Virus record (IMG/VR): IMGVR_UViG_3300045988_115146
Direction: 5' to 3' (one strand)
DNA length: 64,000 bases
DNA from: a virus
Part shown: one piece after another, positions 5,689-54,175 of the stretch
How the letters are laid out: every line of letters starts with the position of its first letter
Numbering within the stretch: the stretch's first letter is position 1
Program-made: the position numbers and the translations under genes
The notes under the pieces: generated by a model
The model's input: the letters and a program-made list of their open reading frames with translations, nothing else
The model's database searches: none
What the model was told of the DNA's origin: nothing

Positions 5689-5768
5689 ATACATATTAAA
5701 CACAAGCCATAGTTGAGTTGGTTAAGTGGGGCCGGAGTTGGGTTATGTTTAATCCTGCTCTGGCTTTT

Positions 5769-6416
5769 TTATTGTCTAAGATCTACAGCAGCTTGTTCTA
5801 AAGTTTTTTGTATGTTCTTTCTCATGTGAGAAAACATATTTACTGCAAATTTATCTCTTGGCAACTCAAAGTAATCAATCAAGTGAAGGATAGATAACTT
5901 ACCGTGTGATTCCTTTATTCTTGACTCAAACCATTTGGGAGGTTCAAGCTGTATCTTCATAACCAAATACTCATCAGGTGTAAGATGTTCTTTCATGTAT
6001 TCATGGAATCTTTGTGATTGTTCTTCCTTGATACGAGTTTCTTCTGAGTCATCAAGTAATTCCTTGTTATTATCAAATAGGACTTCAAATGAAGTTAACT
6101 CCTGATTAAATTCTGCCTGTTTAGTATAGGCATTACGCAATAACTTACTCTTGAAAGTTTGAAGGGAAGATAAAAGAGTGGCCTTTAATCTTTCTTCATC
6201 ATACTCACTTTGATATTTATTGAATACATACAAGAACTTATCCCAGAAAAAAGAGTTGATTATATCTGGTGTAACATTAAATCTTCTAGAATCTATTCCC
6301 CTTACTAATCTGCGGATTAATGGTTTACAGGTTTTATACAACCTATTAAACAAATCCTCATCATAAGGTTTTAATTCTGTCAAACGATGTAGTTCACTTC
6401 CGTTGTTGCCTTTCAT
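5769..6416 (-). CDS. Putative sigma-70/ECF-like transcription factor
   Basis: Only leftward gene in this part of the window. Region-2-like DIINSFFWDKFLYVF and region-4-like LTPDEYLVMKIQ...SILHLIDYFELPRDKFAVNMFSHMRKNIQKTL seen by eye. Confidence 0.35.
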   Translation of the reverse strand: MKGNNGSELHRLTELKPYDEDLFNRLYKTCKPLIRRLVRGIDSRRFNVTPDIINSFFWDKFLYVFNKYQSEYDEERLKATLLSSLQTFKSKLLRNAYTKQAEFNQELTSFEVLFDNNKELLDDSEETRIKEEQSQRFHEYMKEHLTPDEYLVMKIQLEPPKWFESRIKESHGKLSILHLIDYFELPRDKFAVNMFSHMRKNIQKTLEQAAVDLRQ

Positions 6417-6440
6417 AGTAGTAAAGATTTTTTAACAATG

Positions 6441-6448
6441 CAAATATA
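6441..6448 (-). promoter_or_regulatory. Bacteroidota-type -7 box (TATATTTG on minus strand)
   Basis: Plus strand CAAATATA is the reverse complement of TATATTTG, 25 nt upstream of the minus-strand ATG at 6416. No clear -33 TTTG. Confidence 0.45.
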
Positions 6449-6585
6449 ATATAATAAGTAACAACTTGTATGAATTTATAAAAATTATTTCACCGTTTGT
6501 GTTGAAGTTAGTTCAAAGATGAGCTTCATGAACTATATCATCTAGCAGATACTATTGATAATACATCCTGAATATTATATAATAT

Positions 6586-8052
6586 ATGAAACAAAACAAG
6601 GTAAAGAAGAGGTTAAACTCATGTGATAAATTCACTTTTTCCATAGAGTTTCAATTAGAAGTATTAAGGTTTCTGATACAAGGCAAGGAATCTCTTTTAT
6701 ATATCTCAAAGATAAAGCCTGGGTATTTTACTCTGATAGAACATTCTATCTTAGTAGAAGCCTTGATCAAATTTGTTAAGAAGTATCAGAGAATCCCCAG
6801 TGAAGTTTTGATGATAGAACAGGTAAAGACTTTATTGGAAGGCAAGGATTATACAGATTTGGTTACAAAGGAAGATATCCCCAATATTCATAAGTTAATA
6901 TATGAACTGTATAACAAGCCATTAAAGGATGTAGATATAGTTTTGGAAAACATACATAAGTTCATTGCCTATATAGAATTAAAGGCTTTGAATGAGAGTA
7001 TGGATTTCTCAGATTATAACTCATATGAAACATACCAATCAAAGCTAACCAAGATCCTTCAAAATTCAAAGCCACAAAAGAAGGATGAACCATTGTTAAT
7101 GGTTAGTGGAACTGCAATGCGTCAACTTATGAGAAAGGTTGATCCGGATGTAGTTCCTACTCCATTTTGGCAATTGAATAAGTTGGGTAATGGGGATGGG
7201 TATCCTAAGAATTCTTTATTTGTGTTGATTGATCGACCCAAACGGAGAAAGACCTTTGCACTTATAAATATAGCAAGGGGATACTTGGCAATGAGGAAGA
7301 ACGTATTATATATTGATACTGAGAATGGTAAGAACCAGTTAATGGATCGTATGATCCAATCTACTCTCAACAAAACTAAGAGAGAGATGTTAACTGGTGA
7401 TTATGATAAGATGGAGCAAAGACACATGCGTAAATATAAACGTCTTGGTGTAGAGTTTATAGTTGAGCGTGTACCAGCAACCATTGCCGATTGTAATACT
7501 ATCAAGAATCTAGTCAGGAAGTTAGAATCAGAGAAAGGTATAAAGGTGCATGTCATCATGATTGACTATGCTGCAAAGTTAGCTTCTATTTCCAGAGATA
7601 AGGATGATGTAGAACGTATTAACAATGTATATATAGATATAGATAATATGGGTGATGAACTTGGGCTAGATGCCATTTGGACTGCTCAACACGTTACCCG
7701 AGAAGGCGCTAAGCATCAAGAAACAAGATACGAGGATAATGATATTGCTTCTGCTATTTCTATCATAAGAAATGCAAAATGCGTAATGGGGTTAAATTCT
7801 ACACCCGATGAAGAAGAACATAATATAATGAGAATGGAAGTTGTAGTTCAACGAGATGGAGTTCCAACCGGTAGAGTTATGTTCAATATGGATCCAGAAA
7901 GACAACGTATGAAAGAGTTCTCAAGAGAAGCCAGAGCTAAATATGATGAGTCCATGGGTAGACAAGTAGATGATATGCTTAAAAAGAAAAAGAAGGTAAG
8001 TAATCCCAATGCAAACTCTGAAAAGAGGAGTAAAACCACTGGTGATATTTAG
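6586..8052 (+). CDS. DnaB-like (SF4) replicative helicase
   Basis: RecA-type core (VLIDRPKRRKT Walker A-like, VHVIMIDYAAKL Walker B-like, WTAQHVTREG) after an alpha-helical N-domain. Sits next to the primase. Confidence 0.55.
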   Translation: MKQNKVKKRLNSCDKFTFSIEFQLEVLRFLIQGKESLLYISKIKPGYFTLIEHSILVEALIKFVKKYQRIPSEVLMIEQVKTLLEGKDYTDLVTKEDIPNIHKLIYELYNKPLKDVDIVLENIHKFIAYIELKALNESMDFSDYNSYETYQSKLTKILQNSKPQKKDEPLLMVSGTAMRQLMRKVDPDVVPTPFWQLNKLGNGDGYPKNSLFVLIDRPKRRKTFALINIARGYLAMRKNVLYIDTENGKNQLMDRMIQSTLNKTKREMLTGDYDKMEQRHMRKYKRLGVEFIVERVPATIADCNTIKNLVRKLESEKGIKVHVIMIDYAAKLASISRDKDDVERINNVYIDIDNMGDELGLDAIWTAQHVTREGAKHQETRYEDNDIASAISIIRNAKCVMGLNSTPDEEEHNIMRMEVVVQRDGVPTGRVMFNMDPERQRMKEFSREARAKYDESMGRQVDDMLKKKKKVSNPNANSEKRSKTTGDI

Positions 8053-8300: not shown

Positions 8301-8666
8301 ATGGATATCAGATTGCTAAAGATATTCCGTAGGAGAGCTTCTAAAGAGATATGCTTAAGAAGACAACCAGGTAATAGGTATGAAGTGGTATGTCCAATAA
8401 ATGAAGAAAATACTCTTGGATGTTTTACTAAACAATGGGTTCACATAAATAGTCCAAAAGCTTCTATTACATTTAAGATGTGTACTCCCAATGGCAGTAC
8501 TTTCATAAATAGAATAGGGTATAATCAATACGATGCGTATATTATACCATTTAACACTAATTTTCTAACTATGGAAGAAGCTATTTTAGAGATATCCAAG
8601 ATTAGGAGAGGTTATATACAATATCACTTAGTGCCGGAGTTCTGCAAAGGATTACCCATTAAGTAG
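8301..8666 (+). CDS. Hypothetical protein
   Basis: Co-directional ORF, 2-nt spacing from upstream gene. No motif recognised. Confidence 0.5.
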   Translation: MDIRLLKIFRRRASKEICLRRQPGNRYEVVCPINEENTLGCFTKQWVHINSPKASITFKMCTPNGSTFINRIGYNQYDAYIIPFNTNFLTMEEAILEISKIRRGYIQYHLVPEFCKGLPIK

Positions 8667-8803: not shown

Positions 8804-9757
8804 ATGAAGCTTAATAATAATCTCAAGGGCAGGCTCCATCAATACTTTATAAGAAAGATAGGGGCTTTTGATTACAGACACTCATGGATGAAGTCAGATT
8901 GTCCATACTGTGGTAGAGAAAAGAAGTTTGGTATTAACCTTTCAAGTAATAGGTGCAATTGTTTCCGATGCGGAGAACATCCCTCCCCTATTGGATTAAT
9001 CATGTATCTAGAGAATACCGATAGTTTTCAAGAAGTACTGCATATACTTGAATCGGGTGATTATTCTGGATATGTATTTAAGGAGGAGAAGGTTGAATTA
9101 AAAGGTAAGAAAGAATTTTTCCTCCCTGATGGATTCAAGAATATATCTATGGGTAATTCTGTATTGGCAAAGTCAGCCAGGAATTATTTGAAGAGAAGAG
9201 GATTCAATATAGATGAATTGGCTCGTAAGGGATGGGGATATTGCAATGAAGGTAAGTACCTGGGTTATGTAATTATCCCATTTACGGAGCATGGGCAATT
9301 AACTTATTTCAATGCCAGATTATATATGGGCGCTGGCCCCAAATATAACAATCCAGAAGTAGATATAACAGGTTTGGGAAAGAGTTTTATTATTTATAAT
9401 GCAGATGCTCTAGAAATATATAAAACAGTTTATATTTGTGAGGGTGCAATTAATGCAGAGACTATCGGAGAAAATGGGATTGCAACGGGAGGCAAGGCCA
9501 TTTCAAGATATCAGGTGAATAGATTTATTAAAAGCCCAGTAGAAAAGTTTATTATATTAATTGACCCAGATGCTAAGGATAAGGCATTAGACCTGGCTTT
9601 CAAATTAGTACCCTTTAAAAAGGTAAAGGTGGTATTTCTACCTGATAATGAAGATGTGAATTCTTTGGGTAAGAGAAAGACTTTAGAATATGTACGAAAG
9701 ACGACATATCAGACTTATCAAGAACTTTTAACTATAAAATCAGAACTAAAATTATAA
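8804..9757 (+). CDS. DNA primase (zinc finger + TOPRIM)
   Basis: CPYCGREKKFGINLSSNRCNCFRCGEH zinc finger. TOPRIM blocks YICEGAINAETIG and ILIDPDAKDKA. Confidence 0.75.
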   Translation: MKLNNNLKGRLHQYFIRKIGAFDYRHSWMKSDCPYCGREKKFGINLSSNRCNCFRCGEHPSPIGLIMYLENTDSFQEVLHILESGDYSGYVFKEEKVELKGKKEFFLPDGFKNISMGNSVLAKSARNYLKRRGFNIDELARKGWGYCNEGKYLGYVIIPFTEHGQLTYFNARLYMGAGPKYNNPEVDITGLGKSFIIYNADALEIYKTVYICEGAINAETIGENGIATGGKAISRYQVNRFIKSPVEKFIILIDPDAKDKALDLAFKLVPFKKVKVVFLPDNEDVNSLGKRKTLEYVRKTTYQTYQELLTIKSELKL

Positions 9758-9760
9758 ATT

Positions 9761-10144
9761 ATGGCACTTTTAATTTGGGTTATATCAGTGGTATTACTTT
9801 CATTTATTACACTTATTGTAACTACTTGGTTATGCAATATAACCGACTCTTCAAATAGCCTTATTCATAATAACAAATATAACAAGTATAAGATTTATTA
9901 CGATGCCTCATGTGACCTATATTATTGTAAGATGGTAACTAACTATCTGTTGGGTATTATCCCTATTTGGAGGAAGGTCAAATATTCAGTACCATCAGGA
10001 TTTGAAGATTCAATTTATCATATATGGTATGAAGATAATTCAGAAATTATACGGGTTGAGATGAATAAAAGTTACACTGAATACTGTGAAAGAAATGATA
10101 AGTTAAAAGCTAAGGCAAGAGTAGTATATAAGAGTTATGAATAA
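9761..10144 (+). CDS. Hypothetical membrane protein
   Basis: N-terminal TM segment LLIWVISVVLLSFITLIVTTWL. Confidence 0.5.
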   Translation: MALLIWVISVVLLSFITLIVTTWLCNITDSSNSLIHNNKYNKYKIYYDASCDLYYCKMVTNYLLGIIPIWRKVKYSVPSGFEDSIYHIWYEDNSEIIRVEMNKSYTEYCERNDKLKAKARVVYKSYE

Positions 10145-10979
10145 GGTAAAGAGAGAACCGTCAATCCATATATCCAAATCTTTATTCCGTAAATTATGGA
10201 ATGAGATTGGGGATAAAGTATCAGAAGAATTTGTGGATAAATTTTTTACAAGAGCCAGGCAATATTCTTTGGATCACAGATCTGTAGTAGGAGAGAATAA
10301 ACCAGTAAGAAAAAAGGCTATCAGTAGAACTTCAAGTAGTATAGGAGATGCTAATTTATTAGCCGATATTATATACTCTACTAGAATACAACTAAAACAT
10401 ATAGGAGTAACTAAAATAAAGCAAACAGATTTACAATGGGCATCAATAAAAGAGTTGGTACCTGTTGTAAATGAATTCTGTCAGAAGTATGGATTTGAAC
10501 CTCGTCAAGGTTATATTGAATTTGTAACTACTGGCCTTAAACTCATGGCTCAAGCCAAGAGAGTTAATTATAACTTCTGTGCTAATTGGTTACATCAAAG
10601 AGTTAATTGGATAATTGAGATATATGATTCTGAGATAGAAGTTAAAGAGGATAAATATCCAGAATATACTAGAGAGGTATATGAGAACTATACAAAGGAA
10701 ATCCTCGACAGAATAGGTATCAACAATACTTATGATAAGAATCCGCAAGAATATGTATGGTTTGTAAGAGCAAGAAAACTTGCAGATGAGATAGGGGTTG
10801 ACTATGAAACTTTTGTTCAGGCTCAATTCTATGCTCTTGAATTCTGTAATGGTATACCTAAGATAGAAGATTTATCAAATGATAAGGCTCGTCAAAGAGT
10901 AATCAATTATATGGCTAAATTTAATATTGTATCCCGACCCAAATCAGAACATGTGGATTGGGATGCCTTTAAAAGATAG
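10137..10979 (+). CDS. Hypothetical protein
   Basis: 280-aa co-directional ORF, 8-nt overlap with upstream gene. No motif recognised. Confidence 0.5.
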   Translation: MNKVKREPSIHISKSLFRKLWNEIGDKVSEEFVDKFFTRARQYSLDHRSVVGENKPVRKKAISRTSSSIGDANLLADIIYSTRIQLKHIGVTKIKQTDLQWASIKELVPVVNEFCQKYGFEPRQGYIEFVTTGLKLMAQAKRVNYNFCANWLHQRVNWIIEIYDSEIEVKEDKYPEYTREVYENYTKEILDRIGINNTYDKNPQEYVWFVRARKLADEIGVDYETFVQAQFYALEFCNGIPKIEDLSNDKARQRVINYMAKFNIVSRPKSEHVDWDAFKR

Positions 10980-10982
10980 GAT

Positions 10983-11102
10983 ATGAAAAGATATGATCCA
11001 ATGGTAGAAGCAGCTAAACCCTTATTAGTGTTATATACTGTAGCTATAATAATTGGTTTGATATTGGGTATTATTTGTTGGATATTTGATATAAGAATAT
11101 GA
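10983..11102 (+). CDS. Small (39 aa) hydrophobic protein
   Basis: MKRYDPMVEAAKPLLVLYTVAIIIGLILGIICWIFDIRI. Below ORF-track cutoff. ATGA overlap with helicase start fills an otherwise empty gap. Confidence 0.35.
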   Translation: MKRYDPMVEAAKPLLVLYTVAIIIGLILGIICWIFDIRI

Positions 11103-12529
11103 TAACTATAACTATCAAGAACTGTAATGTTTGTGAGATTTCTGGCCCAGCTAAATTCACAAATAAATTATATGAGGCTTTCAGGATCAAGCATCCTGAT
11201 GCCTGGCATATATTGATGTATAGCAGGGCAAAGAATTGGGATGGGTATGTAAAATATATCTCAGATTATGGTCAATTCAAGATAGGCCTACTGAATAAGG
11301 TTTATAATGAATGCTGTAAAATGGGACAAAAAGTAAAAATTATAGATAATAGACCCCCGTTAGGAATTAAACCAGTAATTCCAGATGTACTGGGAGATAA
11401 AAATCTACGGGAAGTACAAAAAGAAGCTCTAGAAAAGATACTAAATAATCGTGTAGGGGATACTCCTTTCCTGATTTGTGCATCAGACCTGGCTGTAAAT
11501 TTTGGTAAGACCCTTATATTTTGTGGGTTACATCAAGCCTTCAATAGGAAATTGAAAACTGTGTTGTTATTAAACAGTGCAGATTTGTTTAAGCAATTCA
11601 AAAAGGAGATTCCAGAGTTGTTACCAGGTGAAAAGATTGCATTTATCCAAGGTAGTAAATGTAATGATTGGGGTAACTTCAATGTGTGCATGGTACAGTC
11701 ATTATCGTCTAACATAAAACGGTACCAAAGATTCCTATCAGAAATTGATATGGTATTAATAGATGAGGCTGATGTCATAGATAACAAAACCTATAAAACC
11801 GTAATACAGCACTTATACAACTCTAGAATACGAATTGGATTGAGTGGTACAATTTACATGAGTGACCAGAAGAAGAAATTGATACATAACCTAAATATCA
11901 TGTCTTTCATTGGTGATAAAGTTAACCAAGTAAAACTGGTTGATATGATAGAGAAAGGATATTCTACTCCCATCACCTGTAAACTGGTATATGCTCCCTT
12001 TAAGTATTCTAAAGAAGTTGACTATCCAACAGAATACAAAGAAGTGATATGTGATAACAAAGAAGCTTGGAAGTTTTCTCTTGATCGTACAAGATACAAT
12101 CTGAAGAGAAAAAGATTGCCAGCTCTTATTGTATGTAAGTTCATTGACCATTGTGAAAATCTTTACAAGTATTACGTTAAACATCTTGGAAATGATTACA
12201 GTATACAATATGTACATCATAAGACAAAAGGGCGTGATAAAATTCTACAAGATTTCAGGGAAGGGAGAATTGATGTGCTAATTGCTACTACAATCATTTC
12301 TAGAGGTCAAAATTTCCCTGAATTGAAATATCTTCAGAATACTGCATCAATGGATTCTAATGAAAAATCGATACAGATATTGGGACGTCTTGCAAGAACT
12401 CACATGAATAAGAAGAAGGCATATCTTGATGACCTTCAATTCCCTGGTCATTACCTTAAGAGGCATGGCAATCATAGAAAAACGTATTATCAGAAAGAAA
12501 ATTTAAAGGTAATCAAGGTGGAGGGATAA
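11099..12529 (+). CDS. Superfamily II DNA helicase (DEAD/DEAH-type, UvsW/RecG-like role)
   Basis: Motif I NFGKTLI, motif II LIDEADVID, motif III LSGT, motif VI QILGRLAR. Confidence 0.75.
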   Translation: MITITIKNCNVCEISGPAKFTNKLYEAFRIKHPDAWHILMYSRAKNWDGYVKYISDYGQFKIGLLNKVYNECCKMGQKVKIIDNRPPLGIKPVIPDVLGDKNLREVQKEALEKILNNRVGDTPFLICASDLAVNFGKTLIFCGLHQAFNRKLKTVLLLNSADLFKQFKKEIPELLPGEKIAFIQGSKCNDWGNFNVCMVQSLSSNIKRYQRFLSEIDMVLIDEADVIDNKTYKTVIQHLYNSRIRIGLSGTIYMSDQKKKLIHNLNIMSFIGDKVNQVKLVDMIEKGYSTPITCKLVYAPFKYSKEVDYPTEYKEVICDNKEAWKFSLDRTRYNLKRKRLPALIVCKFIDHCENLYKYYVKHLGNDYSIQYVHHKTKGRDKILQDFREGRIDVLIATTIISRGQNFPELKYLQNTASMDSNEKSIQILGRLARTHMNKKKAYLDDLQFPGHYLKRHGNHRKTYYQKENLKVIKVEG

Positions 12530-12694
12530 TACGCACGCGTATGCGTATATACTTACCTGTATATCTCTATTAGTATTTTAGTATACTAAAATACTAATAG
12601 AGGTTTATATAGCTAAAGCTATATAAACTTATACTTTCTATACTTACTTTAGTAAGTCTTTAAGCTAAAGCTTAATAATGCGCACGCACGCATA
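12529..12694. repeat. Composite element copy 1: alternating Pu-Py tract + four perfect hairpins + second Pu-Py tract
   Basis: 24-nt perfect alternating purine-pyrimidine run 12529-12552. 34-nt palindrome 12567-12600. Palindrome GTTTATATAGCT-AA-AGCTATATAAAC 12603-12628. ACTTACT/AGTAAGT and TTAAGCT/AGCTTAA hairpins. 17-nt Pu-Py run 12678-12694. About 80 bp repeated at 54035. Confidence 0.9.
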
Positions 12695-12786
12695 AGGGAT
12701 TGCCTGAAAGTTAGTGCATATACTATTCTACATCAATGAAACAGAAAAACCTATTAACTATTGAATGATATCAAACACTCGAATAT

Positions 12787-13188
12787 ATGGCTAAGAAAAA
12801 GAAAGACAAACTTAAAGATGCCAGGGAAGAATTAGAATCAGGTGATATCCTTGAACCAATGGATATTTCTAAGTTGGGAACAAACGGAGATGTATGCTTT
12901 GGTAAGCATTATGATCTTTCAACCAAGGAATGCAAGATGTGCGGGGATTCCGAATTATGTTGTATCAAGTTCACAGATCTAATGGGTAAGACCAGAAAGG
13001 AATTAGAAGCTGATACCCAATACAAGGATTTGGAACCTTTGATTGATATGGCAGGTTGCAAGAAGTATTACCGTAAATTGGTAAGGGATAAACTTGGTAA
13101 GAGAGAAATACTTGATAAGCTTCAGAGTAGGTTTGAATTATCACGTAAAGAAGCAAGAGACTTATACCGTAAATTTAACAGTAAATAA
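12787..13188 (+). CDS. Lys-rich small protein with Cys cluster
   Basis: MAKKKKDKLKD N-terminus, CFGKH..CKMCGDSELCC cluster. No family recognised. Confidence 0.5.
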   Translation: MAKKKKDKLKDAREELESGDILEPMDISKLGTNGDVCFGKHYDLSTKECKMCGDSELCCIKFTDLMGKTRKELEADTQYKDLEPLIDMAGCKKYYRKLVRDKLGKREILDKLQSRFELSRKEARDLYRKFNSK

Positions 13189-17612: not shown

Positions 17613-17695
17613 GCTCGGATGGAGAAATAGGTAAACTCATCAGATTTAAGCTCTGACGGTCATTGACCTTGCGGGTTCGACTCCCGCTCCGAGTA
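17613..17695 (+). tRNA. tRNA-Leu anticodon TAA (class II, long variable arm)
   Basis: Acceptor GCTCGGA/TCCGAGT, anticodon stem TCAGA/TCTGA with loop TTTAAGC, variable arm GGTC-ATT-GACC, T arm GCGGG-TTCGACT-CCCGC. Confidence 0.8.
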
Positions 17696-17719
17696 CATAG
17701 TATCAAATACTCTTGTCTT

Positions 17720-18418
17720 ATGAATGATGTTATAATTACCATGGCTGGAAAGGGTACAAGAACAAATAAAGAAGTACCCAAACAATTCTTAAAAGTATCA
17801 CAAGATAAATACCTATTTGAAATCTCATTAGATAAATTTATACGTACTGGATGCTATCGTAAGATAGTTCTTGTTGTGAATCCAGAGTATGTAGAGTGGG
17901 TAAAAAATAGAATATCTAATAACTATCCAGGTAAATTAGGCAGATTAATCACAGTAATACCAGGTGGTGATACTGCACAACACTCGAGAATCTTAGGATT
18001 TGAAAGCTTATTAACAGATGAGGAATCACTTTGGCCAAATACAGTTACTTTCCATGATGGTGTAAGAGTTGGTTTCGATGAAAATCTACTAACATTCATG
18101 ATTAATAATTGTAGGTTTAATAGCACTGCATATGTACCGTATATTCCAGCAACTGGTACATTAAGATTAGATTCTGATAAGGTAGTATATACTAAGGATA
18201 AGTACATGAGGCTTCAGACTCCCATGGTATTTCCATTTTACCAATTCTATGGATGTTATAATAAGGCAAAAGATAAGGGTATAGAATACCAAACAGCTTC
18301 TGATTTGTATGAAGACAACAGTGGTTTAGTGAACTATGTAATGGGTAATAGATTGAACTTCAAGGTAACTTTCGCAGAAGATATTGATGTAGTAAGATTA
18401 TTATACAATCATGAATAA
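17720..18418 (+). CDS. IspD/TarI-family cytidylyltransferase (CDP-alcohol forming nucleotidyltransferase)
   Basis: N-terminal [23 protein letters not shown] matches the AGxGxR...PKQ(F/Y)L signature. IVLVVNP and [10 protein letters not shown] blocks. Start set to the ATG after tRNA-Leu. Confidence 0.7.
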
Positions 18419-19283
18419 TATGAGTTATATTAGTAATCATATCCATAATGGTCATCTAATAAGCAACCTTAGGAGAGAAGTATGGGATATAGAACTAGAT
18501 ATGTTAGATCTAGTAGTTAATATATGTGACAAGATAGGAGTAAAATATTATCTTGATGCAGGTACACTATTAGGTGCAGTTAGACACCAAGGATTCATAC
18601 CTTGGGATGATGATATCGATTTGGTAATGTTCAGAGATGAATATGATAAGTTTATATCATACTGTAGGGAAAATTTAGAATATCCATATTTCTTACAAGT
18701 ACCAGAAACTGATACTTCTATTTATCAACATGCAAAGATAAGGAGGAGTGATACAACAGCTATATTAGAAAGGGATCTAGAAGCTAATTGGGATTTTAAT
18801 CAAGGCATATTCATAGATATATTCCCATTAGATAGAGTTCCAGAAGATAAGGGGAAAAGGGAAAGATTTCTATATGAATTGCAATTAATTAAACTAGAAC
18901 TCTTCTTTTTAAAGAATAGGAGCTGGAAATTTGCTAATATTCCCCTTGAAAGGGAAAGAATGAATTACCTTAAAAACCTTTATGAAAAGAATAGGAAAAG
19001 GTATAATAACACTCAAGAGAATTGTTGGGCAACATTAGCTTTTCCTGAACATAACAATATCATAAAGAATATTGATTTTTACAAGAACCAATATCCGGAT
19101 GTATTCTTAACATTTGAAGGTAGAAATTTGAGAGTACCGAATATTTACCATGGAGTATTGGAAGACATATATGGAGAGGATTACTTAACTCCCAAGAAAT
19201 ATTCTGGATTACATGGTAGGATATTGGTGAATACTCATAAAACATATAAAAACAATATGGAAGACTTTCAAATATTGAAGTAG
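18411..19283 (+). CDS. LicD-family phosphotransferase (CDP-alcohol dependent, fukutin/LicD type)
   Basis: [36 protein letters not shown] is the hallmark LicD motif. 8-nt overlap with the cytidylyltransferase gene. Confidence 0.8.
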
Positions 19284-19403: not shown

Positions 19404-20972
19404 ATGGAGTCAAGATATGCCATAATAAAGAGTTTTTCACAGGTTAAGAAACTTGTGAAAGCTTGTTTGAAGACAGGTATAGCTTCAATAGACTATGAGA
19501 CTAATGCTGAAGGCATATACAATAAAACATTTAGACCAACAATTCTATCAGTAACTTTCCAGGTTGGTTCTGGAGTATCTATTCCATTATGTCATCATGA
19601 ATATGATAACCCTCATTGGAAAAAATGGCTTCTATACTTTGGTAGAAAAGTAGTTGAGAATCCAAAAGTAACTAAAGTAGGTTGGAATCTGAAGTTTGAC
19701 CTTCAGATATTCGAGTTGTATGGTATATATGTAAGAGGTACAGTACTTGATGGTATGTTAATGAAGTATCTCTTAAATGAAGAGAAACCAAATGACCTTA
19801 AATCAATGGTTCGTAGGTATTTACCAGAACACGGAGATTACGAAAAAGCTGATAAGTTTGATAAGATACCATGGAATAAAAAGCCACTGGAACCACTCTG
19901 CAAATATGGATGTCAAGATACCGATTATACCCTACGATTATCTATGTTCTTTGAGAACAAATTGATAGAAATAGGTATGTATCCATTATTAAGGCATCTG
20001 ATAATGCCAGCATCAAGAGTATTACAGCATGCAGAGAAAACTGGTTTATACCTTGATAGGAAATTCAATCAGGAATTACTTGAATCTTACAAGCCAAAGA
20101 TTGATCAAGCAACTTTAAATTGCTTGAATCTTCCCAGAGTTAAAAGATTCTCTAGATGGCTTATCCAAGAAAGAATAAGCAAATACATTTCTTCAATTGA
20201 AATGGAACTTGAAGACTTGGATTATAGTGATCCAAAAAATGCAAGGAAGATAGCTAGCAGGGAACAAAAAATATCTAACATAAGAGCTGGTGTATATACA
20301 ACCAAGAAAGAATTAGAATTAACCCGTGATATAAATCTTGGTAGTAAAGTAGACTTACCAATGTTGTTATATTCTGAAAAGGGGTTCAAATTCCCTATTA
20401 TAAAATATACGAAGGATAAGACTACAAATCGTGATACTGATAAGCCGAGTACTGATGAGGATACATTGGTAGAACTTCGGTTGTCAATTAAGAATCCCGA
20501 AAGTCCCAAAGCAATATTCTTGGATAATCTACTCAAGTTGAGAGGATTGAAGAAGATGTACACTACATATATAAAAGGGTGGCACGATAAAGTACAGGAT
20601 GATAATAAATTACATGGAAGATTTTTGATACATGGAACAACTAGCGGGAGATTGAGTTGCATAGGCGGAGATACAAAAGTATTAACTCAATATGGAGAAA
20701 TACCAATTATAGATATTAAGGATTGGATTGGTGAAGGATTATGTGCCATGACTAAAGATGGGTGGCAATTAATAGAAAACTTCATATATAAGGGTGTTGA
20801 TGATATGTATGAAGTAACACTTGAAGATGGTACTTCTATTCAATGTACTTTAGATCATAAATTTATAACTAATAAAGGTACTAAAAGATTAAGGGAAATT
20901 TACAATAAATACCGAAATACTATTGATTCTAAAATTAAACTTTTAAGATATGTCCCAGACTACGAACAATAG
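19404..20972 (+). CDS. Family A DNA polymerase, N-terminal fragment (3'-5' exonuclease + palm start) fused to split-intein N half
   Basis: Exo I SIDYET, Exo II WNLKFD, Exo III YGCQDTDY. Extein ends HGTTSGRLS at 20657. Then CIGGDTKVLT...TLDH... (104 aa, intein blocks A/B) and TAG. Confidence 0.85.
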   Translation: MESRYAIIKSFSQVKKLVKACLKTGIASIDYETNAEGIYNKTFRPTILSVTFQVGSGVSIPLCHHEYDNPHWKKWLLYFGRKVVENPKVTKVGWNLKFDLQIFELYGIYVRGTVLDGMLMKYLLNEEKPNDLKSMVRRYLPEHGDYEKADKFDKIPWNKKPLEPLCKYGCQDTDYTLRLSMFFENKLIEIGMYPLLRHLIMPASRVLQHAEKTGLYLDRKFNQELLESYKPKIDQATLNCLNLPRVKRFSRWLIQERISKYISSIEMELEDLDYSDPKNARKIASREQKISNIRAGVYTTKKELELTRDINLGSKVDLPMLLYSEKGFKFPIIKYTKDKTTNRDTDKPSTDEDTLVELRLSIKNPESPKAIFLDNLLKLRGLKKMYTTYIKGWHDKVQDDNKLHGRFLIHGTTSGRLSCIGGDTKVLTQYGEIPIIDIKDWIGEGLCAMTKDGWQLIENFIYKGVDDMYEVTLEDGTSIQCTLDHKFITNKGTKRLREIYNKYRNTIDSKIKLLRYVPDYEQ

Positions 20973-22004
20973 GCAAAAGGTATTCAAAGATAAATCTATC
21001 AACGGTCCAAGGAGAAAATTAAAGTTAATAGTAGAGGATGGTAAAAGATATATAAAGAAAGAAGATCTTTTACATTACTTCTTTCAAGAGAATTGGAATA
21101 TAGAAGACTTTAATTATCATTTTGGCATTGGTCATAGGATAGTGAGAGGTTCTCTATATAAATGGTTTACTAGGGAAGAAATAGAGGAATCTCATAGAAA
21201 GAAGATTGCTAATAAACAGATTGGTAGTAATAATTCTAATAGGATTAATTGGTATAAACCCCGTAAGCTTATACCTTTATTGGATTTAGAAGAAGCCGTT
21301 AAAAAATCTACTTGTAAACAGGATTTGAAGGAGAGACTACAATTAACTTCTTGGGAATTGTCACACATACAACAGTTCTATAACTTTAAACTACCAAATA
21401 GATCTCCTTTACTTAATACTAAACTACAGTATTCTCTTTCTAGATGTGATATAAAACTTTTATGTAAAGTTATTACTGGAATGGGATGGGAAGATGTATT
21501 TTTCTATAATACTCCTAAGGCTATCTATAAAATGGATTGTCTTATTTGGGAACTTAGGAAGATAAATCGTTCTTTGAGGAGAGCTTTTAGGAAACAGATA
21601 GTAGATAATGGTATTAAGTTTCCTACAAATTTGATAGAGTATAAATTTCACAAAGCTCTAGAAAAAATGGATATAGAGCATGAAATACAATATTATATAC
21701 CAGAACATAATATACATCTAGACTTTTTAATAAAAGGTCATTACAACTTGGAATTAGATGGAAATTTGCATGAAGAAGAAGCAGATAGTGGTAGAGACCG
21801 TATTCTCAAATCTCTTGGCTATAAAATTATAAGACTAGATTTAAAATCTCTAAATCTTACTAGATTCTCAAAAGAAAAGGAGGTAAGGAAATGTATAAAG
21901 AAATTGGTATTACCAAAGTTAAACCAATAGGTAAGAAAGGTGTATATGATTTATCCGTTATGAACTGTCATCAGTTTGTGGCTAATAATATCCTAAATCA
22001 TAAT
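20658..22004 (+). mobile_element. Split intein (IntN 20658-20969, IntC 21891-22004) with an embedded free-standing endonuclease gene
   Basis: Inserted in the invariant GRLS|S..PNLQ motif. 1347 nt (449 codons), so both polymerase halves share one frame. IntC ends VANNILNHN followed by Ser. Confidence 0.8.
20950..21930 (+). CDS. Free-standing homing endonuclease, Vsr/DUF559-like PD-(D/E)XK domain
   Basis: Different frame from the polymerase halves and overlaps both. C-terminus HEIQYYIPEHNIHLDFLIKGHYNLELDGNLHEEEADSGRDRILKSLGYKIIRLD matches the Vsr-like ..DF....l.iE.DG..H...D..Rd..L...G...iR pattern. Confidence 0.65.
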   Translation: MSQTTNNRQKVFKDKSINGPRRKLKLIVEDGKRYIKKEDLLHYFFQENWNIEDFNYHFGIGHRIVRGSLYKWFTREEIEESHRKKIANKQIGSNNSNRINWYKPRKLIPLLDLEEAVKKSTCKQDLKERLQLTSWELSHIQQFYNFKLPNRSPLLNTKLQYSLSRCDIKLLCKVITGMGWEDVFFYNTPKAIYKMDCLIWELRKINRSLRRAFRKQIVDNGIKFPTNLIEYKFHKALEKMDIEHEIQYYIPEHNIHLDFLIKGHYNLELDGNLHEEEADSGRDRILKSLGYKIIRLDLKSLNLTRFSKEKEVRKCIKKLVLPKLNQ

Positions 22005-23045
22005 TCTCAAGAACCAAACTTACAGCAAATCCCAAAGACTTCAGTAGACCCAAATATAAAGAAGCAATTAGTAGCCCCAGATGGTAAGTTGTACATGGCT
22101 CTTGACTACTCTCAAGCAGAGTTAAGAATCATGGCTCATCTGTCTGGGGATGAAACATATCTTGAGGCTTTTGCAAAAGGTCAGGATCCTCACCTTGCTA
22201 TTGCAGCAAAGAAGTATGGGGTATCATATGAGGAAGCATATAAAGCTTACAGTGATGAACAACACCCAGATCATAATCTTTGGAAGAACCGAAGAAAGCA
22301 GGCAAAACAGATTTGCTTCGGTATTATCTATGGTATTCAGAAGAAACTGCTTGCAGTTAAATTGTCAGATCCAAAAGCTGGTATTATTGTAACACCAGAT
22401 GAAGCTCAGCAGCAGTTAAATGAATTCTTCTATGAACATCCTAAGATTAAAAAGTTCATGATTCATCAAGAAAAGGTATTGATTAAGCATGGGTATATAA
22501 AATCTTTGTTCGGAAGAAAGAGAAGGTTACCTCAGGTATATTCCGATAATGAACAAGAAGCAGCATACGCAGTACGATTATCTGTTAATATGCCATGTCA
22601 ATCAGCAGCATCTGATATGAACTTATTTGCTTCAGTATTAAACTATTGGAAAATGAGACAAGGTAAGTTGCCATTTATGCAAGAGACTTGTAATGTTCAC
22701 GATGCTACCTACTATTTGGTGAGGCCAGAATATATAAATACATGGGTAGTACATGAAATATGGGAAACTTGTCGTAACCCTAATACAAAAGAATATTTTA
22801 ACTTTCAGATAGACGACGTCAATATGAGCATGGATTTTGTTATAGGACGTTCAATGGCAGAGGAATTACCATTTATACCCGGTTATGATTATAGGAAAAT
22901 GCTTAAACCAGATTTTAATCCAGATGAGTACTTAGAAGAACATCGTAAGTACAGAGGTATTGAAATAGAAGATTACCCTAAGTTGTATCCAGAAGAGATA
23001 GCTAGGAATAAAATGGAATTTGAGAAAAGGATATATGAAAGGTAA
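21891..23045 (+). CDS. Split-intein C half fused to family A DNA polymerase C-terminal fragment
   Basis: 38-aa IntC, then SQEPNLQQIP. Motif A LDYSQAELRIMAH, motif B RRKQAKQICFGIIYG, motif C NVHDATY. AAGGAGGT at 21877-21884 upstream of the ATG. Confidence 0.85.
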   Translation: MYKEIGITKVKPIGKKGVYDLSVMNCHQFVANNILNHNSQEPNLQQIPKTSVDPNIKKQLVAPDGKLYMALDYSQAELRIMAHLSGDETYLEAFAKGQDPHLAIAAKKYGVSYEEAYKAYSDEQHPDHNLWKNRRKQAKQICFGIIYGIQKKLLAVKLSDPKAGIIVTPDEAQQQLNEFFYEHPKIKKFMIHQEKVLIKHGYIKSLFGRKRRLPQVYSDNEQEAAYAVRLSVNMPCQSAASDMNLFASVLNYWKMRQGKLPFMQETCNVHDATYYLVRPEYINTWVVHEIWETCRNPNTKEYFNFQIDDVNMSMDFVIGRSMAEELPFIPGYDYRKMLKPDFNPDEYLEEHRKYRGIEIEDYPKLYPEEIARNKMEFEKRIYER

Positions 23046-35034: not shown

Positions 35035-35586
35035 ATGGCAAAGAAAAAAGCTGCAGCAGCAAAAGAGGTAGAACGCAAGGTTCTCTCTAATGGTGTAATT
35101 CTCATCAAGTATGATGACGGTTCCTATGCACTTCTGACTCCTATTTCGGCTGAAGATTCTGAAGATGTATTTGGCGGAGAAGCTGAGGAATCTGATGACG
35201 ATGATTCGGATGAAGATGAGGAATCTGATGACGATGATTCGGATGAAGATGAGGAAGAAGGTGATGATGATGACGAAGAGGATGAAGATGAAGACGATTC
35301 TGATGATGACGAAGAGGATGATTCTGAAGATTCGGATGAAGATGAAGATGACTCAGACGATGAGGAATCTGATGACGAAGATGAAGTAACTCCCGAGGAT
35401 CTGGCCGAAATGGATTTTGAGGCTCTTGAAGATCTTTGCGATGACAAGGAACTCGAAACAGATCCTGATGAGTTTGATGAAGAGGATGTAGAGAAACTTC
35501 GTAAGGCAGTAGCTAAGGAGTTGGGTATTGCTTTGCCCAAGGCAAAGGCTGCTTCTAAGAAAGACACTAAGAAAAAGAAGAAGTAA
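35035..35586 (+). CDS. Polyacidic protein (about 110-residue Asp/Glu/Ser tract) with Lys-rich termini
   Basis: MAKKKAAAAKE..., then EESDDDDSDEDEESDDDDSDEDEEEGDDDDEEDEDEDDSDDDEEDDSEDSDEDEDDSDDEESDDEDE, ends KKDTKKKKK. GC visibly higher than in neighbouring genes. Confidence 0.7.
   Translation: MAKKKAAAAKEVERKVLSNGVILIKYDDGSYALLTPISAEDSEDVFGGEAEESDDDDSDEDEESDDDDSDEDEEEGDDDDEEDEDEDDSDDDEEDDSEDSDEDEDDSDDEESDDEDEVTPEDLAEMDFEALEDLCDDKELETDPDEFDEEDVEKLRKAVAKELGIALPKAKAASKKDTKKKKK
35185..35250 (+). repeat. Perfect 33-nt tandem duplication inside the polyacidic gene
   Basis: GAGGAATCTGATGACGATGATTCGGATGAAGAT at 35185-35217 and again at 35218-35250 (EESDDDDSDED x2). Confidence 0.95.
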
Positions 35587-35714: not shown

Positions 35715-36137
35715 ATGGCAACTAAGAAAAAGGCAGTAGAAGCAAAGGCTGCAAAAACTAAGACTAAGAAAAGCGGTAAGAAGGAATTGACCGCAGAGGA
35801 GAAGAAGGCCAAACGTGAGGCCATGAAGGAGCGACTCAAGAACCGGGCACCTGGTCAGCGACCCAACAGCAAGCAGTGCGATATTATCGACCTTGGTGGT
35901 GGTAACGTAGTAAAGACCTTTGCCATGAACGTACGTAAGTACGGTGTCCTCATTACGTCGGTAGTAACCGATAAGGATGGTAAGGTAATTGCTGTCTCGA
36001 ATGAGACAATCCCTGGCGTATCGGTTAAGTCCAAGAAGGAGCACGGGAACCTTGTTCCTAAGATGCCCGGTATGGGTAAGAAAGGCAAGGAAGCCGAGGA
36101 AATCGTGGACGATGAGGATGATGAAGATGAGGAGTAG
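35715..36137 (+). CDS. Histone H1-like Lys/Ala-rich protein with acidic tail
   Basis: MATKKKAVEAKAAKTKTKKSGKKELTAEEKKAKREAMKERLK N-terminus, C-terminal DDEDDEDEE. GC-richer codons. Confidence 0.55.
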   Translation: MATKKKAVEAKAAKTKTKKSGKKELTAEEKKAKREAMKERLKNRAPGQRPNSKQCDIIDLGGGNVVKTFAMNVRKYGVLITSVVTDKDGKVIAVSNETIPGVSVKSKKEHGNLVPKMPGMGKKGKEAEEIVDDEDDEDEE

Positions 36138-37464: not shown

Positions 37465-37495
37465 AGATATACCCATATAACACCACTGAATTTAA

Positions 37496-37527
37496 TTTGC
37501 ATATTATAATTAGAAATATTATATTTG
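37496..37527 (+). promoter_or_regulatory. Bacteroidota sigma-A type promoter
   Basis: TTTGCA at 37496, 20-nt spacer, TATATTTGCA at 37520. ATG at 37549. Confidence 0.7.
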
Positions 37528-37548
37528 CATAACGAATAAATTTAAAAG

Positions 37549-38007
37549 ATGAAAATTAATCGAGGCTGTATCAGGTTAAAATTGCAAAGTCATTTATCCG
37601 CTCAGGATATCTGGAATCAAATTATGGATGTGCAGATTCAGGCGCTAGAATCCCTTTTAGAGGATAAAAGCTTAGATAAATGGAAAATTATATTCCCTTG
37701 TTATGGAACTTCTCTAGAATCAGTAGAATCATGGGCAAGGGAATATATAGAATCCTTTAAAATGATGAAAGGAGATACCTTTAATAATAGGTATGATGAT
37801 ATTGAAAACATGTTAGTAAATGGACTAAACCAAAGATGGTTCAATACTATAATGAGTACATTATATATGATGGAAGAGGACTTAATGGAAATGAGTTCTG
37901 ATTCAGTATTCATTCTTTGGGATATTTTATTTACTTGCCAGGCATTGAGGAAGGAAAATAATGTAGTAGCTATGGGACTTAATATTTTCGAGCTTAAAGG
38001 ACGATAA
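37549..38007 (+). CDS. Hypothetical protein
   Basis: First ORF downstream of a promoter. No motif recognised. Confidence 0.5.
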   Translation: MKINRGCIRLKLQSHLSAQDIWNQIMDVQIQALESLLEDKSLDKWKIIFPCYGTSLESVESWAREYIESFKMMKGDTFNNRYDDIENMLVNGLNQRWFNTIMSTLYMMEEDLMEMSSDSVFILWDILFTCQALRKENNVVAMGLNIFELKGR

Positions 38008-39543: not shown

Positions 39544-39624
39544 CATAAACAATAAAAGGGAAAGCAATAAAAGGTTAACACACTAGAGACCAAGAACACA
39601 ACCACTAAGAAATTGATAAAAATA

Positions 39625-39656
39625 TTTGCACATATAAAAAAGTTACTTTATATTTG
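39625..39656 (+). promoter_or_regulatory. Bacteroidota sigma-A type promoter
   Basis: TTTGCA 39625, 20-nt spacer, TATATTTGCA 39649. ATG at 39720. Confidence 0.7.
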
Positions 39657-39719
39657 CATTAGGAAATAAAAATAAAAATAACTTTTAATTAATTGTATAA
39701 CCATTTAAAATTGTAAGCC

Positions 39720-41856: not shown

Positions 41857-42711
41857 ATGAAAGAACAAAAAATAGCTCAAAGGTTCCCAAGAGGAATTGG
41901 TATAACTCAATTGGCTATACAAGCTAACAATGGCGATGATGAAGCTATGAAGAATTTGACCAAGTTCATAATCCATATATGGATAGTGAATAATGGAAAA
42001 CTTTGGTCAAGATATTATTCAGTAAATGAACTAGCAGATTTTCTTAGATGTGAACCCGCAATAGTTCAGATGCAAATGAAACAAACGTTTCTAGACAACG
42101 GTTTATTTGACCGTAACAAGATGGAAGAAATCGCTGATTCATTGATGGGGGCTTGTATAGGCTGGGCACTTGAGGATCGTATGGAAATAAGCCAACAGCT
42201 TCAAATACTCCGGGATTGTCAGGGAGGAAAGTATGCTCCTTTCATAACCTCTGAAGTAAATAAAGCTATCGGGTTAAAACAACAATCTACAACTTCTCTT
42301 CAGAGTCTGGTAAGAGCCATATCCGGAGGTGGTACTGTGAATATTTTCAATCAACAGAACAATCAATTCAACAATGGAGTATCTGAAGAACAGACTTTAA
42401 CTCGGGATGAAGCTATGACTCTGATCCAAAAAGAGATTGCCAATAAGGGAGGTATAAAAGAGTTAGAGTATGTAGAAAATCAGTATGACTTCAAAGAATT
42501 GCCCGTTGTAGTTGCAACTAAACAAGAAGGTAATAGGGGAGATAAAGAAGGATTAACTCTCAGAAAGGCCGAATTAGATAGCGTAACAGCAGACTATCAT
42601 GGTGCCTTAAAAGCCTTTGATGAAGATCATCACCAAATCCGACGAGAAATCGAAGAGGGGATAGACTATGAAGAAATCGACCCAGAACTCGAGGATAACC
42701 CCGAAATTTAA
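41857..42711 (+). CDS. Hypothetical protein
   Basis: 284-aa ORF. No motif recognised. Confidence 0.5.
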   Translation: MKEQKIAQRFPRGIGITQLAIQANNGDDEAMKNLTKFIIHIWIVNNGKLWSRYYSVNELADFLRCEPAIVQMQMKQTFLDNGLFDRNKMEEIADSLMGACIGWALEDRMEISQQLQILRDCQGGKYAPFITSEVNKAIGLKQQSTTSLQSLVRAISGGGTVNIFNQQNNQFNNGVSEEQTLTRDEAMTLIQKEIANKGGIKELEYVENQYDFKELPVVVATKQEGNRGDKEGLTLRKAELDSVTADYHGALKAFDEDHHQIRREIEEGIDYEEIDPELEDNPEI

Positions 42712-42743
42712 TTTGCAAATATTGATTTAATTCGTTATATTTG
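42712..42743 (+). promoter_or_regulatory. Bacteroidota sigma-A type promoter
   Basis: TTTGCA 42712, 20-nt spacer, TATATTTGCA 42736. Begins right at the stop of the upstream gene. Confidence 0.7.
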
Positions 42744-42769
42744 CATATCGAATAAAAAATAATAAAACT

Positions 42770-43970: not shown

Positions 43971-44046
43971 TTCTTAAGTAACTAGAACCCTTTATAATAT
44001 AAAAGTTCTAGAAATCCCTACCACATGCCAATACCGAGAACTTTTA

Positions 44047-44078
44047 TTTGCATATTAAGTATAATTTTATTATATTTG
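44047..44078 (+). promoter_or_regulatory. Bacteroidota sigma-A type promoter
   Basis: TTTGCA 44047, 20-nt spacer, TATATTTGCA 44071. ATG 44121. Confidence 0.7.
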
Positions 44079-44120
44079 CATAAAGAGAAATAAAGATATA
44101 AACCCTAAAATTTAAAGGCT

Positions 44121-47887: not shown

Positions 47888-47936
47888 TACAGCATTCAAG
47901 GCCTTAAAAGGTCCTAACCTGGGCCTGGAATATTTA

Positions 47937-47968
47937 TTTGCATATATTATATAATTATATTATATTTG
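47937..47968 (+). promoter_or_regulatory. Bacteroidota sigma-A type promoter
   Basis: TTTGCA 47937, 20-nt spacer, TATATTTGCA 47961. ATG 48015. Confidence 0.7.
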
Positions 47969-48014
47969 CATTGTGAAAAAAAAATAAATATTAACCAATT
48001 AAAAAGCAAAGGCC

Positions 48015-53992: not shown

Positions 53993-54005
53993 TCAAGCCC
54001 CCTAT

Positions 54006-54125
54006 CGCGTATACGCATACGTATAAGGAGAATTCTATTAGTATTTTAGTATACTAAAATACTAATAGAAGTTTATATAGCTTTAGCTATATAAACATAT
54101 ACTTTGTTCTATAGTAGTATTCTTA
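54006..54125. repeat. Composite element copy 2: alternating Pu-Py tract + the same two palindromes
   Basis: 20-nt perfect alternating Pu-Py run 54006-54025. A 34-nt palindrome identical to copy 1 at 54035-54068. GTTTATATAGCT-TT-AGCTATATAAAC at 54071-54096 (centre AA becomes TT). Similarity continues to about 54115. Confidence 0.9.
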
Positions 54126-54152: not shown

Positions 54153-54175
54153 TAATCCCCCCTATAATCCCCCCT
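54153..54175 (+). repeat. Direct repeat TAATCCCCCCT x2
   Basis: 54153-54163 and 54165-54175. C6 runs are conspicuous in this AT-rich sequence. Confidence 0.85.

Follow-up and report, generated by a model that had tools for sequence, protein, structure and literature searches.

The stretch of DNA analysed here (the window) is the 64,000 nucleotides (nt) of IMG/VR virus record IMGVR_UViG_3300045988_115146, read on one strand. It is 85-98% identical to GenBank MT121964, a 75.5-kb phage from human faeces. Judged by its gene order against the description in PMC8008677, its source is a "Flandersviridae"-like phage of gut Bacteroidetes. The window carries two intergenic composite elements, referred to below as sites A and B, which associate A+T-rich palindromes with alternating purine-pyrimidine (Pu-Py) tracts rich in CpG. 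Site A starts at the stop codon of a UvsW-like SF2 helicase gene (11099-12529, + strand; PHROG 16, Pfam ResIII and Helicase_C), inside the replication module, where the genes for the DnaB-like helicase (6586-8052) and the DnaG-like primase (8804-9757) lie at a distance of 2.8-6 kb. It is followed by an open reading frame (ORF) of 133 amino acids (aa), Cys-rich and without family match (12787-13188, +). Site B starts 14 nt past a C5 cytosine DNA methyltransferase gene (53000-53992, +; Pfam DNA_methylase, PHROG 116) and heads the packaging/structural operon. The first ORF 3' of it (54202-54861, +) encodes 219 aa with an N-terminal hydrophobic segment and no family match, and is followed by terL (54863-57385). 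A preliminary description of this DNA had placed one copy of the element after the helicase gene and the other after the methyltransferase gene, some distance before terL; both placements hold, the second site lying 0.74-0.86 kb upstream of terL.

Anatomy of the two elements

Site A begins with a CpG-rich alternating Pu-Py tract of 24 nt with four CpG (12529-12552), of which the part 12529-12548 can form a 7-bp hairpin. It continues with a 38-nt perfect palindrome of 79% A+T, H1 (12565-12602), abutted by a 26-nt palindrome of 77% A+T, H2 (12603-12628), whose centre is AA and whose core is AGCT-AA-AGCT. Then come the hairpin H3 (12642-12657; ACTTAC-TTTA-GTAAGT, i.e. an apex C-TTTA-G) and the palindrome H4 (12660-12675; TTAAGCT-AA-AGCTTAA), which has the same core as H2. 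A second CpG-rich alternating tract of 17 nt, able to fold into a 5-bp hairpin, closes the element (12678-12694). At site B, a C5T run (53998-54003) precedes a CpG-rich Pu-Py tract of 20 nt (54006-54025). It is followed by H1 (54033-54070), again a 38-nt perfect palindrome, here of 84% A+T, and by the 26-nt H2 (54071-54096), whose centre is TT, the loop being inverted relative to site A.

Direct reading of the letters thus bears out the three Pu-Py runs, the AA and TT centres of the 26-nt palindrome and the two further hairpins of the first copy, all of which had been noted in the preliminary description. The 34-nt palindrome reported as identical in both copies is the core of H1 (12567-12600 and 54035-54068), and perfect pairing extends beyond it to 38 nt. 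The outermost pair of H1 covaries: site A has C-G where site B has T-A, a double change that leaves the palindrome perfect in both copies. The block shared by the two sites (12549-12637 and 54017-54105, 87% identity over 89 nt) is essentially H1 and H2 plus about 9 nt.

That this pairing of palindromes and Pu-Py tracts is real and far from chance is confirmed by shuffling. H1 found no match in 100 shuffles even when three mismatches were allowed, and H2 found none either. The window holds nine perfect hairpins with a stem of at least 10 bp, four of them within the elements, against 0-1 in shuffles. Folded as single-stranded DNA, site A reaches -38.2 kcal/mol (z = -8.3) and site B a z of -7.3. 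Within the window, the analysis supports the earlier view of a composite, non-coding, two-copy element that readily forms hairpins or cruciforms. When the window was searched against Rfam only tRNAs passed the gathering thresholds, and the best models for the elements were generic hairpins (17-24 bits against 52-140).

The Pu-Py tracts are equally singular: alternating runs of at least 17 nt occur only three times in the 64 kb, all within sites A and B and with 3-4 CpG each. The tetranucleotide CGCG occurs twice in the window, both times inside these tracts, a pattern weaker than it appears because the trimers CGC and GCG are themselves rare and a Markov model expects only 2.9 occurrences. For the same reason CGCG avoidance was rejected as a signature of restriction. 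CpG density was also discarded as a mark of the elements, not being exclusive to them. The tracts contain TA steps, which lower the propensity to form Z-DNA.

Conservation and turnover in relatives

In IMG/VR, 67 stretches contain the exact H2 pattern and 22 the exact H1. No match falls outside the two positions, site A accounting for 53 loci and site B for 17. This confinement to the same two loci in at least 70 relatives, with no copy in the rest of MT121964, does not correspond to the dispersal of repetitive extragenic palindromes and bacterial interspersed mosaic elements (REP/BIME) or of elements resembling miniature inverted-repeat transposable elements (MITE). A mobile element of bacterial genomes was also rejected: among 185,579 species genomes the H2 pattern occurs in two contigs of metagenome-assembled genomes only, which are probably mis-binned phage.

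The stems of H1 and H2 together (about 60 nt) show no base substitution in 36-38 unique relatives, while the flanking genes are 79-84% identical. The H2 stem is invariant in all 38 unique sequences. At site A, H1 varies in two ways only: one base pair is lost symmetrically from the two arms, shortening it from 34 to 32 nt, and a single nucleotide is occasionally inserted at the centre. In one site-A clade the helicase gene is about 83% identical at the DNA level and the downstream genes about 79%, yet H2 is unchanged, and H1 is still a perfect palindrome after the loss of one base pair from both arms. Pairing is also traced in the right-hand tract of site A, where the pair 12680/12691 is G-C in 11 unique relatives, A-T in 13 and G-T in 14: the form ATGCG..CGCAT alternates with ATACG..CGTAT via a G-T intermediate.

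To follow site B further, relatives were gathered through the neighbouring 219-aa ORF, down to 38-41% aa identity. A Pu-Py tract of at least 12 nt with at least two CpG is present in 32/32 unique sequences at site A and 22/28 at site B, and in none of 2000 control windows. An A+T-rich perfect hairpin with a stem of at least 9 bp is present in 29/32 and 28/28 respectively (9/2000 in controls), and the two features occur together in 29/32 and 22/28, against 0/2000. Across clades site B keeps one layout, i.e. a C-run, a CpG-rich Pu-Py tract of 14-37 nt whose sequence varies, and one to three A+T-rich hairpins. The hairpins themselves belong to at least six unrelated cassettes. MT121964, the nearest GenBank relative, has different hairpins at site B, and H1 is confined there to the sub-lineage of the window. 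To judge from these comparisons, what is conserved is an architecture at two syntenic positions and not a fixed hairpin sequence. In relatives the architecture is kept at both positions, and the hairpin sequences are replaced as cassettes.

The same applies to the claim that the element is present twice. It holds in the sub-lineage of the window, but not as a fixed feature, since only 7 of 23 contigs with both sites share sequence between them. Six of these seven belong to that sub-lineage and have H1-H2 in common as a direct tract of 72 nt. In the seventh, from clade III, site A is the reverse complement of a type-3 site-B cassette that includes GGGGGGATTATAGGGGGG, and the inverted cassette displays a compensatory change (CTCCAGC/GCTGGAG to CTTCAGC/GCTGAAG). 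A third case of sharing is found in the clade of KX501134, where AATATTTATCAGGCC links sites A and B. The site-B hairpin of a distant clade has no second copy and is single in each contig. On this pattern the duplication is secondary: site B received its H1-H2 copy from site A by an ectopic conversion specific to the sub-lineage of the window. The way sequence is shared suggests more generally that sites A and B are analogous elements which sometimes swap cassettes, in either orientation. In near-full-length contigs (77-79.5 kb) the two sites divide the map roughly into 46-51% and 49-54%. Site-specific recombination between them was considered and rejected: their relative orientation is constant in every contig bearing both, most genomes have no sequence shared between the sites, and no recombinase was found.

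Loop inversion is a second recurrent change. Over 70 oriented copies of H2 the centre is AA in 66 and TT in 4, and never AT or TA. By site, the counts are 51 AA and 2 TT at site A (53 loci) and 15 AA and 2 TT at site B (17 loci). The TT centre arose separately at the two sites, being that of L026 and L064 at site A and that of the window and L021 at site B. Three other hairpins, from distant clades, have loop variants that are reverse complements of each other (CATAG/CTATG, TAAA/TTTA and TATATAATA/TATTATATA), and L225 contains two copies of one hairpin with the reverse-complementary loops AAAATC and GATTTT. This amounts to at least five independent loop inversions, to which several arm-symmetrising changes are added. 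Spacer inversion and homogenisation of inverted-repeat arms are outcomes ascribed to polymerase template switching between inverted repeats (PMC8604942 and PMC8794818). The AA/TT difference, for which a flipped hairpin had been proposed from the window, appears to be a spacer inversion of the kind made by intrastrand template switching. The repeated flipping of loops implies that the repeats pair with themselves during replication, although a function is not thereby shown. The alignments thus indicate that hairpin formation in vivo has left mutational traces.

Some words recur on hairpins that are otherwise unrelated. In the window, AGCTNNAGCT occurs three times, always inside the elements (once in each copy of H2 and once in H4, as AGCT-NN-AGCT), and the AGCT-NN-AGCT core is carried by other stems in other clades (GAAAGCTAAAGCTTTC in L229 and TATAGCTAAAGCTATA at site B of L120). 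The apex CTAAAG/CTTTAG (C-TAAA-G or C-TTTA-G) is found on 10 of 32 distinct hairpins with unrelated stems, and the words CTATTAG/CTAATAG recur in the cassettes of distant clades. This recurrence suggests that some factor may read the hairpin tips or the duplex words.

Possible roles of sites A and B

The window contains about twelve canonical terminators (for instance near 5721, 8661, 25126, 41771, 47186, 48806, 49856, 51446 and 62051), with G+C-rich stems of 11-15 bp followed by 4-6 T. Ordinary terminators had been set apart from the element as much shorter. The distinction stands, since they are G+C-richer and end in a T run, but the difference in length does not when their stems are compared with H2. 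The stems of H1 and H2 are A+T-rich instead; they pass a lenient rule of 5 T in 8, yet neither element contains a run of four T or more. Folding of the sense-strand RNA is not favoured: the antisense strand is the more stable in 31 of 32 site-A sequences, and site B is unbiased. Orientation is not fixed, as cassettes occur inverted, and H1 is palindromic through its centre. In the relative L230 just 33 nt, without any element, separate the helicase gene from the gene that follows, so termination does not seem to be required at this junction. Intrinsic terminators and RNase III sites of the T7 type are likewise intergenic hairpins at gene ends. Those considered here differ from them in being A+T-rich perfect palindromes with no T run, in occupying two sites per genome and in showing no sense preference. 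Taken together, the sequence comparisons indicate elements that act at the DNA level, are specified by structure, are independent of orientation and are maintained by selection. They favour a DNA-level role, most likely that of an origin, over that of an ordinary terminator.

Our preferred but tentative reading is that sites A and B are structure-specified sites of replication initiation or unwinding. The A+T-rich palindromes would provide DNA that unwinds readily. The hairpins would extrude under negative supercoiling, or once the DNA is single-stranded, and present the C-TAAA-G/C-TTTA-G apex. The phage primosome of DnaB/DnaG type, or the UvsW/UvsX recombination-replication machinery, may then load at these hairpins. 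The arguments for this are of several kinds. The hairpin arrays, with 77-84% A+T against 65% for the genome, supply the A+T-rich unwinding region expected of an iteron-type origin, and they are flanked by G+C-richer tracts. Site A lies in the replication module, beside the UvsW-like helicase gene and near those for DnaB and primase. Site B lies in a broad minimum of the cumulative GC skew (53-55.3 kb). The phage also encodes a T4-like replication and recombination set (UvsW-like helicase, UvsX, gp32-like SSB and SbcCD-like proteins, together with RusA), and machinery of the T4 type is known to use origins in which unwinding does not depend on a specific sequence. Other phages and herpesviruses, moreover, have two or more related origins.

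Several observations weigh against an origin. The GC skew does not change at site A, and co-orientation of the genes confounds the skew as a whole, including its minimum at site B. No direct repeats that could serve as iterons lie inside either element of the window, the only recurrent short words being AAGCT in clade III. No initiator protein was recognised by Pfam or PHROGs among the neighbouring ORFs. Site A is not universal, being absent from L230 and from L227 (66-nt spacer), and in the KX501134 clade it has no CpG tracts. Lastly, both elements sit at operon ends that have no canonical terminator, and a lenient scan flags H2 at site A and both H1 and H2 at site B as terminator-like.

Known origins offer partial parallels. 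Like oriS and oriL of herpes simplex virus (HSV), the sites have an A+T-rich palindromic centre between G+C-richer flanks and occur in more than one copy per genome. The HSV origin is worked on by UL9, an SF2 helicase, and hairpin formation is part of its activation; here an SF2 helicase gene abuts site A. Homology to UL9 or to its boxes is however absent, and the hairpins behave as exchangeable cassettes. In T4 the R-loop origins ori(uvsY) and ori(34) have an unwinding element set by ease of melting, and there are several origins per genome. The shared toolkit (UvsW-like, UvsX, gp32-like SSB and gp46/47-like SbcCD) extends this likeness, and an element defined by melting would fit the turnover of cassettes. 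We know of no T4 origin made of long perfect palindromes or of CpG Pu-Py tracts. Inside sites A and B no Bacteroidetes-type promoter (TTTG..TAnnTTTG) was found; transcription in the sense direction would reach them from the genes upstream. The Bacillus phage SPP1 has two related and far-apart origins, oriL and oriR, one in the replication module and the other near late genes, with direct-repeat boxes to which the initiator G38P binds. The two distant related elements recall this arrangement, here without iterons or a recognised initiator. In T5, the injection-stop/repeat regions are arrays of palindromes and inverted repeats conserved above the neighbouring genes, with a 131-bp block repeated in inverted orientation, and their function is inferred from conservation only (10.1101/866236). 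They resemble sites A and B as non-coding palindrome arrays better conserved than nearby genes. They differ from them in lying in a terminal repeat, in containing DnaA boxes and in their size of about 1 kb, as compared with two elements of 120-170 nt about half a genome apart and free of DnaA boxes.

A more elaborate form of the origin reading, which we consider unlikely as a whole, would make the sites supercoil-responsive switches to non-B DNA. A Z-prone tract and a cruciform array would together serve as origin, the hairpin apex would be offered to the DnaG-type primase or the helicase loader, the exchangeable cassettes would be kept perfect by template switching, and the C5 methyltransferase would tune the CpG.

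Other roles have to be weighed against that of an origin. The elements may be terminators, insulators or stabilisers of mRNA 3' ends for the helicase and methyltransferase transcripts, shielding the downstream operons from read-through, a role that has some chance of being right but that we think rather doubtful. It accounts well for their position at or just past a stop codon, at an operon end devoid of canonical terminator and with a new transcription unit after it, as well as for the calls of the lenient scan. Even inverted cassettes could work, since perfect Watson-Crick hairpins fold on either strand. However, the terminators that the phage does possess are of another type, the sense-strand fold is not favoured, the L230 junction does without any element, and such a role explains neither the AGCT-AA-AGCT core nor the conserved CpG Pu-Py tracts, nor a palindromy that continues across the loop. 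An operator function seems to us improbable: a dimeric phage protein would bind AGCT-AA-AGCT, the CTAATAG inverted words and the CpG tracts, and would control the promoters downstream. The restriction of AGCTNNAGCT to the elements, the recurrence of its core and of the CTATTAG/CTAATAG words in distant clades, and the presence between the hairpins and the next gene of the unique, near-invariant 12700-12760 block and of C6TATAATC6 would all suit such a protein. But a palindromy reaching 38 nt exceeds that of a plausible operator, the flanks differ and yet remain self-complementary, and cassettes are replaced wholesale between close relatives with no accompanying change seen in a candidate regulator. 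No helix-turn-helix protein or other regulator was identified nearby.

We give no more credence to the idea that the palindromes are a largely non-functional by-product of template switching in two permissive spacers, with an occasional ectopic copy. Loop inversion, homogenised arms, mirrored indels and cassette turnover would all be expected of such a process (PMC8604942 and PMC8794818), and site A is indeed missing in some genera. This hardly explains why the same two-part design stands at two positions across deep divergence when 2000 controls contain none, or why a stem of about 60 nt has no base substitutions while its flanks diverge by about 20%. Long palindromes are moreover a liability for phages, being sensed by Lamassu/DdmABC and cut by SbcCD (PMC11707656), and their retention in spite of this cost suggests a benefit. 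Least probable, and very unlikely in our view, is a role in packaging or cleavage, whether as a pac site, as genome ends, or as hairpins at which the SbcCD-like or RusA proteins would make programmed breaks that seed recombination-dependent replication. Site B is just upstream of the terL operon, both proteins are encoded, and contig ends are enriched at both sites, many of them at palindrome centres. At site B, an end falls within the 450 nt upstream of the 219-aa ORF in 10 of 78 loci, and within the 450 nt downstream of it in one. The corresponding counts at site A are 6 of 62 loci within 200 nt past the helicase gene and one upstream of it. The GenBank records KX501134-9 also end at the elements, and contigs 3300023312_000017 (L110/L197) and 3300029054_000011 (L146/L238) run exactly from site B to site A. 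Contig 3300045988_052926 (L079/L156) is a 41-kb false circle closed by a 49-nt overlap that corresponds to H1 and part of H2. Breaks at palindromes and at two-copy repeats are however an expected artefact of assembly. Near-full-length contigs begin at scattered points, as circular or circularly permuted assemblies would, site A is distant from the packaging genes, and no small terminase was recognised beside site B. The enrichment of contig ends is thus most simply an artefact of assembly and sequencing at palindromes and repeats, and we found no specific support for a pac role. The telomere site telRL of N15 is also a long perfect palindrome with an alternating CG/TA run. The likeness lies in this combination; here, though, the Pu-Py tract is beside the palindrome and not at its centre, and the genome has two such sites. 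A scan of about 47 ORFs of the window, the small ones at 36-53 kb aside, revealed no protelomerase.

We found no prior description of the paired elements, whose make-up and evolutionary behaviour are unusual. The account of the candidate family "Flandersviridae" makes no mention of palindromes, origin, skew or any cis-acting site for replication, packaging or regulation (PMC8008677). Sites A and B stand out as the best candidates for a site of this kind in the family. They also offer an unusual case in which selection would bear on DNA structure more than on sequence, the hairpins turning over and the loops flipping while the tracts and the A+T-rich palindromes are conserved. In practice the elements break assemblies and yield false "circular" half-genomes of about 35-45 kb in public catalogues, which may distort calls of completeness for the family.

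Genome context and neighbouring features

As in the published map of "Flandersviridae", the genome has a colinear structural block followed by DnaB, DnaG and PolA and then by about 20 kb of unknown ORFs, and it contains the ispD and licD insertion reported in some members (PMC8008677). Phages of this type are reported to be met in the human gut about as often as crAss-like phages (PMC8008677). The order begins with packaging, head, tail and lysis genes. These are followed by DnaB, a DnaG-type primase, the SF2 helicase, dUTPase, ThyA, three tRNAs and ispD with licD, then by a split PolA, SSB, UvsX, an exonuclease, SbcD/SbcC-like proteins and RusA, and it ends with about 15 kb of small ORFs behind Bacteroidetes-type promoters. 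Mapping on MT121964 leaves about 17 kb of the genome outside the window, and, judged from that record, no third element lies there.

On either side of site A several features deserve description. The best sequence match of the helicase in the PDB is T4 UvsW, over nearly its full length (E 5e-7), and the ORF 12787-13188 has no sequence relative there. Between the primase and helicase genes, the ORF 10137-10979 (280 aa) is specific to this phage family, with 105 homologues, none of them named. Considered as a possible initiator, it gave no supporting match: its AlphaFold model is confident and all-alpha (mean per-residue confidence, pLDDT, 85.5), and Foldseek against the PDB returned nothing below E = 0.6. 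The block 12700-12760 (+) lies in the gap that separates site A from the next ORF. It has no second copy in the window, hardly varies among clades with about 80% identity between their genes, and overlaps a mini-ORF of 10 codons (12737-12769). This block may serve as promoter or leader, or it may belong to the element. In the most distant relatives (L225, L227 and L230) the helicase gene is followed by other repeats or by the 33-nt spacer: L227 has a 20-nt tandem direct repeat (8555-8620), and L225 two TCTAATAG..CTATTAGA hairpins with mutually inverted loops (8560-8650).

Near site B, the motif CCCCCCTATAATCCCCCC (54157-54174, +) follows the hairpins and precedes the 219-aa ORF. It occurs once in the window, and several clades, with aa identities as low as 38%, have kept it ahead of this ORF. 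At site A of L192 and L200 it is found as the reverse complement, just past the helicase stop, and a promoter of fixed direction seems unlikely. Neither the 12700-12760 block nor C6TATAATC6 recurs in the window, and both were rejected as a repeated phage promoter. The terL gene itself (54863-57385, 840 aa) is interrupted by an intein with an HNH endonuclease domain (about aa 250-530). The alignments of several close relatives end near 55432, which suggests that the intein insertion is missing there.

Elsewhere in the replication module, the adjacent nucleotidyltransferase genes ispD and licD occupy 17663-19283. The family A DNA polymerase (19404-23045) is split into ORFs 19404-20972 and 21891-23045. 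Between these halves, the ORF 20950-21930 bears a DUF559/Vsr-like endonuclease domain and probably encodes a homing endonuclease. A family of Bacteroidetes-type promoter repeats (TTTG, about 20 nt, TAnnTTTG) is found on the + strand at 37487-37549, 39616-39678, 42703-42765, 44038-44100 and 47928-47990. These repeats precede small ORFs and probably mark early genes transcribed by the host RNA polymerase. A copy on the minus strand (6428-6455) faces the ORF 5769-6416, which is read from that strand too. Finally, the ORF at 35035-35586 and 36090-36133 is extremely rich in Asp and Glu and is made of degenerate tandem repeats of 9-15 nt (GAT/GAA).

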